Assembly: GCA_040905425.1 (NCBI GenBank)
Contig: JBBDRO010000003.1
Location: forward strand, 21,450-63,043
Reading direction: 5' to 3'
Origin: Gemmatimonadota bacterium
GTDB taxonomy: Bacteria > Gemmatimonadota > Gemmatimonadetes > Longimicrobiales > RSA9
Length of the DNA: 41,594 nucleotides
Below, piece by piece: positions 29,471-34,824 of the stretch. Both the position numbers and the translations under genes were made by a program. Within the stretch, counting starts at the first letter, position 1. Each line of letters starts with the position of its first letter. The notes under the pieces are model-generated. The model did no database searches, was not told the origin of the DNA, and worked only from the letters and a program-made list of their open reading frames with translations.

Positions 29471-32400
29471 TCAGCCGGCCACCGGTACGAGCTTCACGTG
29501 GGTGTCGTAGAAGCTGACGCTGCCGCCGACGGGGTCGATCATGCAGGTGTTCTTCAGGGCGGGGTCGACCCACATGGCGGCGTTGGCGTGGATCCCCTTT
29601 GCGCGTCGCGGCTCGCCCTGGACGGTGTGGCCGTCGATGAGCATGTCGGCGGCGCCGGTGGCCCAGTGGCCGAAGCCGAGGGGGAAGCTGATGACCCCGG
29701 GCCGGACCTGCTGCGTGATCTGGACCTTGCCGACCATGGGCTTGGTTCTGCCGTTGCCGAGCGGCCATTCTCCGGCGGTGTTCGTGGCGCTCACGACCCG
29801 GACCTCCTGCCCGTGCTCGAGGCCGAGGCGTTGCGCATCGGTCGGGTGGACCTGAATGCCGTTTTCGGGCATGAGGGCGGAGAGCCACGGGTCCGCGATG
29901 GTGCGGCTCTTGGTGTGGACGATGGTCCGGTTGGTGATCATAGCGAGCCCGTAGCCGTCACGAAGCGCGTGGGGCTCGTTGCCGTGGAAGTCCCGCACGG
30001 GCATCCAGGTGGCGAGGCCGGGATGATGCTCGCCGGTGCCGCTGTGGATCTTCGAGGCCGTCTTCTCCTGGTAGAGCGAGAGCTGGGCGGCGTGGGGGTG
30101 GGCCAGCAGGTCCCCGTCGTAACCCAGCTCGTGGTCCTCGAAGCGACCGCCACGATTGAGGGCGTACACCACCCTGGGCCACATCTCTTCGCCGACGATG
30201 CGTCGCCAGCGGTCCGGGTCGAACACGCTGGCCGGCAGGTGTCGTCGGGCACTGAGAAACAGCTCCATCTCCCGGTGGTCGGCTTCCGGGAGGTTCTGTG
30301 AGCCGTCAGGCTTCTCGCCGAACGCGATGTTGCCGACGCAGCGGAGCATGAATTCGTCCATGTGCCGCAGGTGCGTTCCGTTCCCGAAGCCTTCTTCCCC
30401 GAAACCGGGAAGCCCCATCTGTTCCGCGATGCCCAGCATCATGGTCTCGAAGCAGATCGGCTGGGTCTCGCCGAACACCGTGCACGCTTCCGGGATCGGC
30501 GCGATCACCGGCTGGCGGATCGGGTTGGACTTCCACGTCATGTTGGGATGGCTCTTCTGGAACTCCCAGCGTTCGAGGTAGGAGGTGTCGGGGAAGATGT
30601 AGTCCGCGTACATGGACGTGGGGCCCACGAGGATGTCGCTGGCCACGAAGAGGGGGACCGTCGCGAGGTCGCAGAGGATCTCGATGTTGGTATGGCCCGC
30701 CGGGAGCGCATACGTGGGGGCACCCATGTACAGGAAGAACGCCTTGATGGGATAGGGGTACGCGTCGCCCATGGAGGGGATGATCTCTTCATAGACGTCG
30801 GACGACAGCGGGTACCAGTTGCGCCGGGCGGGGTACCCCTCGAAGAGCGTGGTCTGCTCGTAGTCCACGTCGTGGCGGATGGCGCTGATCCCGAAGGCGG
30901 TGGCCTTGCCCGGCTGATCCTTGAGCTGGAACCAGCCGCCCTTCCCTTCGATGTCCCAGCTGCTGGCTTTGCACATGCCGCCCTTATGGTCGAAGTTCCC
31001 GAGCAGCATGTTGATGGTCATCCACGCCAGCACGTTGTAGAAGCCGTTGGTGTGCTGGGCGGGCCCGCGGTGGATATCCACCGCCGCCCGCTTGCCGTGG
31101 CTGGTCAGCTCCCGCGCCACGTCGATGACGTGTCGGGGCCGGACGTCGGCGATCCGGCACCATTCCTCGATGGTGTGCCGGTGGCATTCCTCCCGGAGCA
31201 GCTGGAGGCCGGTCTTGACGGCCGTGCCATCGGGCAGCGTCGTGTCCGCGTACAGGTCGCCGTGCACGGGGCGGGTGGCGTCGTTGGGGTCGAAGGCCAC
31301 GGGGCGGCCGTCGACCATCACCACGAGCTCGTTGCCGTAGGCGAGGCCGACGTCGCGGGCCCGGACGAACCCGCCGGGCCGGCCTTCGGTGACATCCACG
31401 AGCCACGTGGCGTTGACCCAGCTCGGATCTCCGTTGGCGTTGGCGGCGGCCCTGTTCGCGCACGAGACGAAGTCCCGGTCGAATCGGTCGTTGTCCAGCA
31501 TCCACCGGATCATGGCCATGGCCAGCGCGGTGTCGGTGCCCGGCTTCAGGGGCAGCCAGCGCCAGGACTTGCTGGCCAGCTTGCTGAAGCGCGGATCGGC
31601 GCACGCCACCTTCACCCTCCCCGACACCAGGTTGTTGGTCAGGCGCGGGGACCGGTTGGGCGGACCGTAGTTGGCTTCGAACAGGTTGGCGCCCACGAAC
31701 AGGATGAAGCGGCTGTTCTCCGTGTCGGCCTGCCAGTAGAACTTGCTGCCGCCACCGAATTCGCCCGTGGCGGTGTCGTACTGCTCGCTGATGGCCTTGC
31801 ACGTGAAGTAGAGCGAGCCCTGGCAGACGGTGGTGTGGCCGTGCAGGTTGACCGAACCGAGGCCCGCTGCGAAGCGCTTGTAGAACTCGCTGCGCCCGGC
31901 CTTCAGTCGGCCGTAGGCCATGAGGATCTGGTTGTTCTTCGGACCCAGGTCGGGGTGGTCCGGGTCGATCAGGACGTCGAGGTGGTCCGCGTGCCGGCGC
32001 TTGAACGCCTCCACCAGCGCCTGCTTCCGGGCCCGGTCTTCCTCCGCCAGGATCCCGTCCACGTCCGCGGCCATCTCCTTCGCCACGGCCGGGTCCCGTA
32101 GCGCCATGATCTGGTCGAGACCCTCCACCACGCGATCTTCCTCGCCGGGCGCGTCCGCGAAGAGGCGACCCCCCTCGCAGATCTCACGGACCGCCTGCTC
32201 GAACGGCATGGAGACCCAGCGGTTCTCGCCCCGCCGGCCGGCCCGCTTGAGGACCCGGCGCAGCCGGTAGGGATCATAGGCCGTCTGCAGGCCGGCCTGG
32301 CCCTTGGGGCAGATGGCCCCGTCCACGGCCACGGCGTCGTCGAGCGGTACGGCCTCACGCAGGTGAGGCACCAGGGTCCAGGGGCTGTAGGGGTTCCCAT

Positions 32401-32674
32401 CGATCTTGGTGAGGACCCCGTCCTGGATCTTGCACTTGATCCCGCAGCCGGTGTTGCACTGGAGGCAGGTCGAGTGGATCACGTTGCCCGGATCGGCCAG
32501 GTCGTACGGCGCATCGGGCCGATCGCTGCGCAGCACGGCCCCGTGCCGCCGGGCCACGGCGCCCGACGCCGTTCCGGGTAGGACGAGGCTGCTGCCGAGG
32601 AGCGCGCCTCCGGCGAGGAACTCCCGGCGAGACTGGCGCTTCGGGTTCGGCGTGGATCCGGACTGCGGGCTCAT
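29471..32674 (-). CDS. Tat-exported DMSO-reductase-family molybdopterin oxidoreductase catalytic subunit, TtrA/SrdA-like (1067 aa)
   Basis: Tat SRREFL; CLQCNTGC...GAICPKG [4Fe-4S]; GNPYSP; HGHTTVCQ (putative Mo ligand); YADYIFPD..YLE.W; GFGHW; true start ATG 32674 overlaps the upstream TGA. Confidence 0.88.
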   Translation of the reverse strand: MSPQSGSTPNPKRQSRREFLAGGALLGSSLVLPGTASGAVARRHGAVLRSDRPDAPYDLADPGNVIHSTCLQCNTGCGIKCKIQDGVLTKIDGNPYSPWTLVPHLREAVPLDDAVAVDGAICPKGQAGLQTAYDPYRLRRVLKRAGRRGENRWVSMPFEQAVREICEGGRLFADAPGEEDRVVEGLDQIMALRDPAVAKEMAADVDGILAEEDRARKQALVEAFKRRHADHLDVLIDPDHPDLGPKNNQILMAYGRLKAGRSEFYKRFAAGLGSVNLHGHTTVCQGSLYFTCKAISEQYDTATGEFGGGSKFYWQADTENSRFILFVGANLFEANYGPPNRSPRLTNNLVSGRVKVACADPRFSKLASKSWRWLPLKPGTDTALAMAMIRWMLDNDRFDRDFVSCANRAAANANGDPSWVNATWLVDVTEGRPGGFVRARDVGLAYGNELVVMVDGRPVAFDPNDATRPVHGDLYADTTLPDGTAVKTGLQLLREECHRHTIEEWCRIADVRPRHVIDVARELTSHGKRAAVDIHRGPAQHTNGFYNVLAWMTINMLLGNFDHKGGMCKASSWDIEGKGGWFQLKDQPGKATAFGISAIRHDVDYEQTTLFEGYPARRNWYPLSSDVYEEIIPSMGDAYPYPIKAFFLYMGAPTYALPAGHTNIEILCDLATVPLFVASDILVGPTSMYADYIFPDTSYLERWEFQKSHPNMTWKSNPIRQPVIAPIPEACTVFGETQPICFETMMLGIAEQMGLPGFGEEGFGNGTHLRHMDEFMLRCVGNIAFGEKPDGSQNLPEADHREMELFLSARRHLPASVFDPDRWRRIVGEEMWPRVVYALNRGGRFEDHELGYDGDLLAHPHAAQLSLYQEKTASKIHSGTGEHHPGLATWMPVRDFHGNEPHALRDGYGLAMITNRTIVHTKSRTIADPWLSALMPENGIQVHPTDAQRLGLEHGQEVRVVSATNTAGEWPLGNGRTKPMVGKVQITQQVRPGVISFPLGFGHWATGAADMLIDGHTVQGEPRRAKGIHANAAMWVDPALKNTCMIDPVGGSVSFYDTHVKLVPVAG

Positions 32675-33861: not shown

Positions 33862-33915
33862 GGTTCAAAGCTCGGCCGCGTCGGTCGCCTCGATCCGTCG
33901 CCTCGACCAGTCGAA

Positions 33916-34824
33916 TCAGTCAATGTAGAACACGCGCGGGCGCGTGCCGTGGTGTGGGAGCAGCGTGTGCACGTTCTCCCGTGCGATCAGCTCGGTGACC
34001 AGCGCGTCCGGATCGCTCTGATCGCCGAAATACGTGGCCCTGCCGATGCACGTGGTGGTGCACATGGGCAGCTGACCCACCTCCAGTCGGTGCAGGCAGA
34101 AATGACACTTCCGGGCATTGCCCACGGGCGACTGGTGGTGATCCCGGTCCCAGTGCTTGGCGTACTCGTGGCTCGGGCGTTCCTCCCAGACCGACGCGCC
34201 CTCACCCAGCGTGGCCGGACTGTCCGCATTCTGCCCGCCGTCCGCATCCGTGTAGTAGAGACCGAAATCACTGGTCCGCGCTCCGTACGGGCAGGCTGTC
34301 AGGCAGTACCGACACCCGATGCACTGGTCGTAGTCGATGACCACGATGCCGTCCGGCCGCTTCCATGTGGCCTTGACGGGGCAGACGGGGATACACGGCG
34401 GCGCGTCGCACTGCATGCACGGGCGTGGCGTGAACCGGATGTTGATGTTCGGGAACTCCCCTGACTCCTCCGTCACGACCGGGCGATACACCACGCCGGG
34501 CGGCAGCTTGTTCTCCGCCACGCACGCGATGGTGCAGGCGTGGCAGCCCACACACTTGCGACGGTCGAGGACCATCACCCACCGGCGCTCCTCCACCGGC
34601 TTGGCCATCGCCCGTTTCAGATCCCGCTGCATCCGAAGCAGCAGGTCCTCGCCCTGCTCCTCGGGGATGTTGTTGAGGACCGGGAGCCGTCGGACGGTGT
34701 CGGGCCCGGTGGGGTCCGCCGGTGGCGGCGCCAGCCGGTCCTTCACCACCACGGCCCCCGCCCCGGCCACCCCCAGGCCCGCCAACGCTCCAGCCCTGGC
34801 GAACTCCCTGCGACTCATGCCCAT
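33916..34824 (-). CDS. 4x[4Fe-4S] electron-transfer subunit (TtrB/NrfC-like) with a Tat signal
   Basis: [47 protein letters not shown]...CTTTC; ATG 34824 with GGAG RBS. Confidence 0.92.

Follow-up and report, generated by a model that had tools for sequence, protein, structure and literature searches.

A Ttr-like molybdoenzyme operon within an arsenic island of a Gemmatimonadota genome, a candidate arsenate reductase

A three-gene molybdenum enzyme operon was identified in a 41,594-nucleotide stretch of DNA (referred to here as the window) from a Gemmatimonadota bacterium (assembly GCA_040905425.1, contig JBBDRO010000003.1, positions 21,450 to 63,043), and comparative sequence analysis makes it fairly likely that this operon encodes a periplasmic, quinol-driven arsenate reductase of the tetrathionate reductase (Ttr)-like, or alternative, kind. 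The operon, with its genes in the order B, C and A, is embedded in an arsenic island that also contains five ArsR genes, ArsM, ACR3, ArsA, two ArsD copies and a third, broken one, and an ArsD-CMD fusion. When arsenate is reduced, arsenic becomes mobile and reaches groundwater and rice paddies; arrA-based surveys miss the Ttr-like family, the members of which are called tetrathionate reductases by automatic annotation. The window offers a clean case of this family, in that the operon lies within an arsenic island in a genome without ArrA or a recognisable ArsC. Published work is cited below by PubMed Central (PMC) identifier, as far as the available excerpts of each paper extend.

The operon was found to be intact, with B, C and A following one another in the same direction on the minus strand (Table 1) and with the stop codon of C overlapping the start codon of A as ATGA. 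Subunit A (protein P0001) matched database proteins at 82% identity over 100% of its length, indicating that these are real genes and not chance open reading frames (ORFs). Twin-arginine translocation (Tat) motifs were present in the translations of both A (SRREFL) and B (SRREFA), and the FS0 cysteines of A (C70-x2-C73-x3-C77...C122) were invariant in the alignment. Subunit B, the longest ORF of which opens at TTG 34863 and the start of which was placed at ATG 34824 (MGMSRREF...), contains CxxCxxCxxxC groups within Pfam Fer4 dicluster domains, its four Cys groups corresponding to four [4Fe-4S] clusters. For subunit C, a crude hydropathy scan revealed approximately ten hydrophobic segments, compared with the nine-helix membrane subunit that serves as a criterion for Ttr. 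An initial annotation of this DNA, made from the sequence alone, had described an Fe-S subunit, an NrfD anchor and a 1067-aa catalytic subunit at 29471-34824, Tat motifs on both soluble subunits and an ars cluster beside the operon; its coordinates and description proved exact, and the motifs and the ars genes were likewise recovered. The ttrBCA order and the Tat leaders on both A and B agree with criteria given in the excerpt of PMC12949373, but both features are common to Ttr-like arsenate reductases and hence do not discriminate between these and true Ttr.

Annotation of the KEGG/JGI style names many of the homologues as ordinary tetrathionate reductases, JGI assigning the name 'tetrathionate reductase subunit A' to several homologues of A. 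The best NCBIfam match of A was indeed the TtrA model (NF011567), although its score of 448.9 bits fell far short of the cut-off (1750), while the ArrA model (NF041714) scored 97.1 bits (cut-off 1600) and the Psr/Phs model PhsA (NF012032) 203.5 bits (cut-off 694); the best match of B was TtrB (170.7 bits, under the cut-off of 416). Using the single sequence, the nearest solved structures were PsrA (2vpw, 1.3e-39) and ArrA (6cz7, 2.5e-19). A word-indexed search with A scored 8000 proteins, of which 2864 reached E <= 0.001; apart from the query, the 119 best matches were 64-82% identical, came from many phyla and included NrfD-A fusions of 1447-1482 aa. When representatives at 50% identity were considered, the first was 64% and the second, a fusion, 57% identical, the rest being at most 46% identical. 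The fusions P0017, P0054, P0061, P0077 and P0122 belong to the same clade as the window protein; being odd for a Tat-exported subunit, they may be a gene-calling artefact arising from overlapping stop and start codons. An NCBIfam scan of 48 representatives yielded none at the TtrA cut-off, the best being P0228 (1381 bits), and P0263 (Shewanella goraebulensis) was rejected as a true TtrA, being a divergent sequence that falls on the true-Ttr side. The family is very widespread: among species-representative genomes, 588 of the 599 pattern matches listed, a lower bound, correspond to a relative. The 80 best of those listed were taken as related loci; these span at least 19 phyla, the closest of them being from a Gemmatimonadaceae metagenome-assembled genome (MAG; 83% identical).

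A FastTree phylogeny was built from 163 rows. The 80 related loci, with 87 TtrA-like ORF pieces between them, contributed 71 full-length ORFs, and 79 of 150 representatives had a length of 900-1250 aa and were included; to these were added the window protein, five TtrA proteins named as such by the Prokaryotic Genome Annotation Pipeline (PGAP), four other named proteins and, as outgroup, three Psr/Arr-like ORFs. The five PGAP-named proteins served as true-Ttr anchors, the Salmonella and Shewanella ANA-3 TtrA sequences lying outside the trees, as do SrdA, Pyrobaculum PAE1265 and AnrA. The window protein was placed in a 72-leaf clade with a support of 100, inside which a 59-leaf subclade (support 100) represents the loci with an NrfD gene between B and A, while the PGAP-named TtrA proteins fell in a separate 21-leaf clade. 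In an IQ-TREE analysis (LG+G4) of 53 rows picked from the 163, all 24 chosen clade rows were located on one side of a branch with a Shimodaira-Hasegawa-like approximate likelihood ratio test (SH-aLRT) value of 100, and the true-Ttr side formed a separate 12-row group at 99. Because its TtrA score is low and its supported clade stands apart from the PGAP-named TtrA proteins, subunit A is classified, on sequence grounds, as not being a bona fide TtrA. Grouping with bona fide TtrA, which the initial annotation had named as evidence that would count against its reading, was thus not seen, and its description of a TtrBCA architecture in a non-Arr candidate arsenate reductase was borne out.

Neither a TorD-type chaperone (PF02613) nor TtrS/TtrR-type regulators were found among the 37 window ORFs scanned with Pfam (smaller ORFs lying outside the scan), as the initial annotation had noted, and the regulators at the island belong to the ArsR family instead. 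In addition, the excerpt of PMC12949373 reports the PSR-1-type enzyme as one without tetrathionate reduction. An ordinary tetrathionate reductase is therefore considered highly improbable in the face of the TtrA score, both trees, the lack of TtrS/TtrR among the 37 scanned ORFs and the active-site Gly-Arg pair described below, even though the B-C-A order and the dual Tat leaders are hallmarks of Ttr in that same excerpt. Members of the clade from Caldimicrobium and Desulfobulbus correspond to the 'TtrAB lacking TtrC' type of PMC12949373. Thiosulfate disproportionation (Hashimoto 2022) was set aside as a function for the clade, that enzyme clustering with authentic Ttr according to the same excerpt.

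Active-site residues were compared by aligning a profile of 13 clade members to ArrA (6cz7). The Mo-ligand Cys of ArrA (C193; chain position 153 in HSSVC) aligned with Cys284 in the HGHTTVCQ motif of subunit A, in agreement with the Cys ligand that the initial annotation had placed in GHTTVCQ, and ArrA H189 and Y166 aligned with His280 and Leu257, respectively. As Y166 falls on Leu257, G164-R165 of ArrA fall on Gly255-Arg256, a match that extends two ungapped residues beyond the printed alignment. This Gly-Arg pair was present in all 72 members of the clade, in none of the 21 on the true-Ttr side and in 53 of the 67 other representatives. Tyr313 was similarly found in 72/72 clade members and 0/21 on the true-Ttr side, and at its position Tyr lies outside the three commonest residues of the other representatives (His in 24/67); Lys293 occurred in 68/72, 0/21 and 16/67, respectively. 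Both residues align at or beside ArrA Y210 and K198, which we take to be arsenate-binding residues. According to the excerpt of PMC12949373, the Gly-Arg pair (R165 of ArrA) marks arsenic enzymes, is shared by Arr and Arx and is missing in true Ttr. Its presence in subunit A excludes a true Ttr but is not proof of arsenate binding: the pair is not confined to arsenate enzymes and is a necessary feature of Ttr-like arsenate reductases, not a sufficient one.

The neighbourhoods of the 80 related loci were analysed using phmmer with the window proteins, all-against-all ORF clustering and Pfam on the cluster representatives. Subunit B was found in 74 loci and NrfD, located between B and A, in 67. 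Genes for ACR3, ArsA, ArsM, ArsD or ArsP were observed in 23 loci, the ArsP permeases being present in eight clustered loci, and a PF12974 periplasmic binding protein in 13 loci, all of which also carry a sigma-54 response regulator (19 loci in total). At least one of the two, ars genes or the AioX-like binding protein, was present in 30/80 loci; when only the 33 loci that reach 20 kb are considered, the count is 17. The arsenic-linked loci are derived from at least 12 phyla. The 23 ars-bearing loci per 851,868 bases of flank correspond to ~27 per Mb, compared with one island in the 4.12-Mb genome to which the window belongs. Genes for the molybdenum cofactor (MoaA, MoeA, MobA and MoaC/B) recur in the related loci, Rrf2 regulators were found in 16 loci and CMD proteins adjoin the operon in 12. 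Together with the Gly-Arg/Lys/Tyr signature and the two membrane modules, these neighbourhood counts provide criteria by which Ttr-like genes can be separated from true ttrA.

Whether an enzyme acts in the direction of Arr or of Arx is not readable from sequence, and the operon could alternatively specify an Arx-like arsenite:quinone oxidoreductase that runs in the oxidative direction and passes arsenite electrons into the respiratory chain. Arr and Arx are close relatives that share the Gly-Arg pair (excerpt of PMC12949373), and the binding protein and sigma-54 regulator of the 13 loci match the AioXSR/ArxXSR pattern of arsenite oxidases. By sequence, however, they equally represent the AioXSR/ArrTSR sensor pattern, which stands beside reductive arr and ttr-like loci as well, sensors of this type being described next to the Melioribacter roseus (M. 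roseus) ttr locus in the excerpt of PMC5492636. The sole physiology tied to the clade is, moreover, arsenate reduction, and menaquinone is an energetically unfavourable acceptor for electrons from arsenite, all of which renders an oxidative role improbable.

Of the twelve loci that lacked an NrfD match, nine have B directly adjoining A and five (L071, L078, L079, L081 and L082) contain a cytochrome c7 gene, which in L079 (8894-9256) is located just upstream of B. The missing NrfD and the cytochrome c7 characterise the Anaeromyxobacter-type subclade, sister to the NrfD-type subclade within the 72-leaf clade, and suggest a different electron entry route. Tandem B-C-A operons were observed in L024, L049 and L068, with the second L049 copy belonging to a neighbouring clade.

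The genome to which the window belongs (4.12 Mb, 115 contigs, estimated 96.7% complete) contains one ars island. ArrA was absent from it (best match 53 bits, cut-off 1600), and no ArsC exceeded its cut-off, the best candidate being a low-molecular-weight-phosphatase-like ORF on another contig (104.1 versus 174.3 bits) and the glutaredoxin-type ArsC model reaching 35.7 bits against a cut-off of 106. The Ttr-like complex is therefore the sole recognisable arsenate reductase of the island. ArrA over its cut-off was likewise found in none of the five clade genomes searched, including that of Limisphaera 4302-co. Two other large MopB ORFs, of 1057 and 1065 aa, were observed on contigs C78 (~17700-20800) and C47 (~5048-5833), the former being adjoined by an Fe-S subunit-like gene. 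Within the clade, branching ignores taxonomy, with Gemmatimonadaceae placed beside Verrucomicrobiota and Thermotogota, and a close homologue was encoded by one of 40 relatives of this genome and by none of the 24 within the same family; horizontal transfer, with the operon arriving as part of the arsenic island, is therefore its probable origin.

The clade includes proteins from Limisphaera sp. 4302-co (L036, 61% identical) and an Anaeromyxobacter MAG (L081, 54% identical), both of which provide links to arsenate physiology. As described in the excerpt of PMC13608581, Limisphaera 4302-co grows with arsenate, not with selenate or thiosulfate, and has no ArrABC; its authors assign the arsenate activity to a Ttr-like complex (MGA4643419-21), describe the genes as confined to L. 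ngatamarikiensis and 4302-co, and note no arsenate respiration for the sister strain VF2. The Limisphaera complex shares the subclade, the B-NrfD-A order, and the GR and HGHTTVCQGSL motifs with that of the window; it is, however, accompanied by an Rrf2 regulator and has no ars genes within 10 kb, whereas the window copy lies inside an ars island. The Anaeromyxobacter/Geobacter type has identical active-site motifs and belongs to the same 72-leaf clade, but differs in its sister subclade position, in the direct abutment of B and A and in the adjacent cytochrome c7. Near homologues of L081 (76% identical) occur in Geomonas subterranea and Geobacter sp. DSM 9736, which Table S2 of PMC11462812 includes, together with strain PSR-1, in its ttrA reference set; the excerpt of that paper reports that ttrA transcripts of the PSR-1/Geobacter type outnumber those of arrA in paddy soils. 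The PSR-1 TtrA homologue itself (Muramatsu et al. 2020) is known here as cited in PMC11462812, PMC12949373 and PMC13608581, and the excerpt of PMC12949373 describes Ttr-like arsenate reductases as distinct from true Ttr and from Arr, with no tetrathionate reduction.

Compared with more distant systems, true TtrBCA (Salmonella and Shewanella ANA-3) shares the B-C-A order, Tat leaders on A and B, the NrfD-type anchor and the Cys ligand, but proteins of the true-Ttr side are only ~29-35% identical to the window A, lack the Gly-Arg pair, Lys293 and Tyr313, and form a separate clade. ArrAB (Shewanella ANA-3, 6cz7) catalyses the reaction proposed here, with C193, H189 and G164-R165 matching Cys284, His280 and the Gly-Arg pair; its homology is nevertheless distant and ArrA is ~250 residues shorter than the window A. 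Shewanella ArrAB, moreover, is without an NrfD anchor and uses CymA (excerpt of PMC2762525). PsrABC (Thermus thermophilus, 2vpw), the closest solved structure by sequence, shares the three-subunit A/B/NrfD-type design, but PsrA comprises 765 aa, gene order and clade are different, and the PhsA score of the window protein is below cut-off.

Several observations weigh against arsenate as the substrate. The Limisphaera link consists of a growth phenotype and gene presence, not biochemistry, and its locus, with an Rrf2 regulator only, is one of the 50/80 loci without an arsenic-linked neighbour in the available DNA, many of these being short. The tie to PSR-1 is at organism level only, via the congeneric MAG protein L081 (accession WP_059435911.1 was unmatched), and the Anaeromyxobacter-type subclade differs in its membrane module, having cytochrome c7 and lacking the NrfD gene that otherwise separates B from A. 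The neighbourhood background is a rough, unmatched estimate from one genome, and the 53 other Ttr-superfamily representatives that carry the Gly-Arg pair are of unassigned function. The B-C-A order is shared with the selenate reductase SrdBCA (reference list of PMC7331816), and the family of TtrA, SrdA and alternative Arr is catalytically versatile, encompassing tetrathionate, selenate and arsenate (excerpts of PMC10100899 and PMC7331816). The complex could thus act on selenate, antimonate, thioarsenate, a pentavalent methylarsenical or polysulfide, with the island being a mere neighbour or part of a mixed metalloid response; the 50 loci would fit this alternative, as would the ArsM, the two further methyltransferases and the ArsP permeases that accompany the family. 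Conversely, the 61% identical orthologue belongs to a strain that uses arsenate and not selenate or thiosulfate (excerpt of PMC13608581), the recurring neighbours are arsenic-specific (ACR3, ArsA, ArsD, ArsM and AioX-like sensors) as opposed to selenium or sulfur genes, and clade-invariant residues align to the ArrA pocket. Another substrate is accordingly judged rather unlikely, and arsenate reduction is retained as the preferred function.

Architecture, cofactor residues, clade, neighbourhoods and the absence of ArrA and ArsC were directly observed, and we infer substrate, reaction direction, quinone and energy gain as follows. Menaquinol would be oxidised at the NrfD-type subunit C, and electrons would travel by way of the four [4Fe-4S] clusters of B to FS0 of A and on to the Cys284-ligated molybdenum bis(pyranopterin guanine dinucleotide) (Mo-bisPGD). 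Arsenate, partly held by Arg256, would be reduced to arsenite at the Mo centre, after which the ArsR, ACR3, ArsA/ArsD and ArsM proteins of the island may sense, export or methylate the arsenite. The initial annotation had proposed arsenate respiration; the candidate arsenate reductase was upheld, whereas the choice of respiration over periplasmic detoxification is one that sequence cannot decide.

Muramatsu 2020 and Haja 2020 are cited for Ttr-like arsenate reductases. Such enzymes have been in print from 2009 to 2026, and the window operon adds a member, not a kind. Arsenate reduction of the Ttr type was proposed for Pyrobaculum aerophilum (P. aerophilum; Cozen 2009, via citing papers), M. 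roseus (PMC5492636), PSR-1 and Limisphaera (PMC13608581), and genes of this type have been used in paddy soil (PMC11462812) and hot-spring surveys, as far as the excerpts extend. The suggestion of the initial annotation that arrA surveys would overlook this lineage holds in that such surveys do miss the family; the idea itself had already been proposed and surveyed (excerpts of PMC11462812, PMC13608581, PMC12949373, PMC11362583 and PMC5492636). In a survey of Gemmatimonadota (PMC11316326), the excerpt presents TtrA matches as sulfur cycling and does not link them to arsenate.

Table 1. Features of the Ttr-like operon and the surrounding arsenic island (positions in the window).
Feature	Position	Strand	Description	Evidence
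Subunit B	33916..34824	-	302 aa, Tat-targeted ferredoxin-like electron-transfer subunit	Pfam Fer4_11 and related domains
Subunit C	32671..33861	-	396 aa, NrfD/PsrC-type integral membrane quinol-interacting anchor	Pfam NrfD E = 2.9e-23
Subunit A	29471..32674	-	1067 aa, Tat-targeted Mo/W-bisPGD catalytic subunit	Pfam Molybdop_Fe4S4, Molybdopterin, Molydop_binding
CMD (AhpD-like) protein	34898..35275	-	125 aa, 35 bases upstream of B	Pfam CMD E = 4e-16
MobB/MobA fusion	35333..36457	-		Pfam MobB + NTP_transf_3; NCBIfam NF011059 299.3 bits, cut-off 354
BASS/SBF-family transporter	36766..37878	-	upstream, operon strand, start uncertain	Pfam SBF
ArsR/SmtB-family regulator	29033..29356	+	convergent with subunit A	Pfam HTH_5; NF033788 71 bits, cut-off 55
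Broken ArsD homologue	28449..28793	-	in-frame TAG 28671..28673	tblastn and translation
ArsD-CMD fusion	26167..26943	+	Cys-Cys C-terminus	Pfam ArsD + CMD; NCBIfam ArsD 116.4 bits, cut-off 90
Two overlapping YlbF-like proteins	22402..23203	-		NCBIfam 'halo-CC-star protein HcsL', 71 and 51 bits, below cut-off 140
ArsR	21682..22326	-	core ars cluster (15733..22326)	Pfam
ArsD	21313..21672	-	core ars cluster	Pfam
ArsA	19523..21316	-	core ars cluster	Pfam
ACR3	18354..19466	-	core ars cluster	Pfam
Metallophosphoesterase	17421..18275	+	core ars cluster	Pfam
ArsM	16107..17060	+	core ars cluster	Pfam
ArsR	15733..16116	+	core ars cluster	Pfam

Upstream of B, the CMD protein was found to be without a CxxC motif; in other loci such proteins are mostly located downstream of A. 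The MobB/MobA fusion is predicted to make the guanine dinucleotide form of the molybdenum cofactor. The BASS/SBF transporter was ruled out as a canonical ACR3 (71.2 bits with the acr3 model, cut-off 282.8). Its gene overlaps the end of a resistance-nodulation-division (RND) pump gene, itself located behind a membrane-fusion protein gene (36766..41592, minus strand); these three genes share the strand of the operon and may be co-transcribed with it.

Past the convergent ArsR gene lie the broken ArsD, a CysK-like enzyme, a 117-aa membrane protein, the ArsD-CMD fusion, an OsmC-like protein and another ArsR, followed by a cyclopropane-fatty-acid-synthase-like methyltransferase, a second methyltransferase, the two YlbF/HcsL-like proteins and the core ars cluster. 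The broken ArsD is 55% identical to the intact core-cluster ArsD, and its in-frame TAG occupies a Trp position that is conserved in both window paralogues (LE* compared with LDW in the ArsD-CMD fusion). A single base change (TGG to TAG) would separate the two codons; the interruption reflects either pseudogene formation or an assembly variant. The true start of the ArsD-CMD fusion is probably internal to its ORF.

The C-terminus of the first YlbF-like protein is CCG, while that of the second carries a single Cys. In a Nitriliruptoraceae MAG, the Hcs pair and ArsD-CMD directly adjoin the Ttr-like operon, and in a Myxococcales MAG the operon is adjoined by ArsD-CMD and the 117-aa membrane protein; the sites outside the window are L040:2742-4718 and L033:2-1529. 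The Hcs and ArsD-CMD genes may constitute a thiol-based arsenic-handling module. It is conceivable, albeit doubtful, that the complex, as the only reductase of an ArsC-less island, accepts methylarsenate or thioarsenate besides free arsenate, in which case it would work with ArsM, the extra methyltransferases, the CysK-like enzyme, the Cys-Cys-tailed ArsD-CMD and the HcsL-like proteins. To our knowledge, and with no literature search aimed at it, no such gene is known for methylarsenate reduction; the activity, if true, would link the reduction of methylarsenate or thioarsenate in the environment to a gene.

The window, which represents the 3' part of contig C3, has a G+C content of 0.64-0.74. 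Between its housekeeping genes and the ars island, a further stretch (7394..15736) contains two KaiC-like double-domain ATPases (11460..12938 and 13182..14657), which are flanked by three histidine kinases (PAS, GAF and plain).

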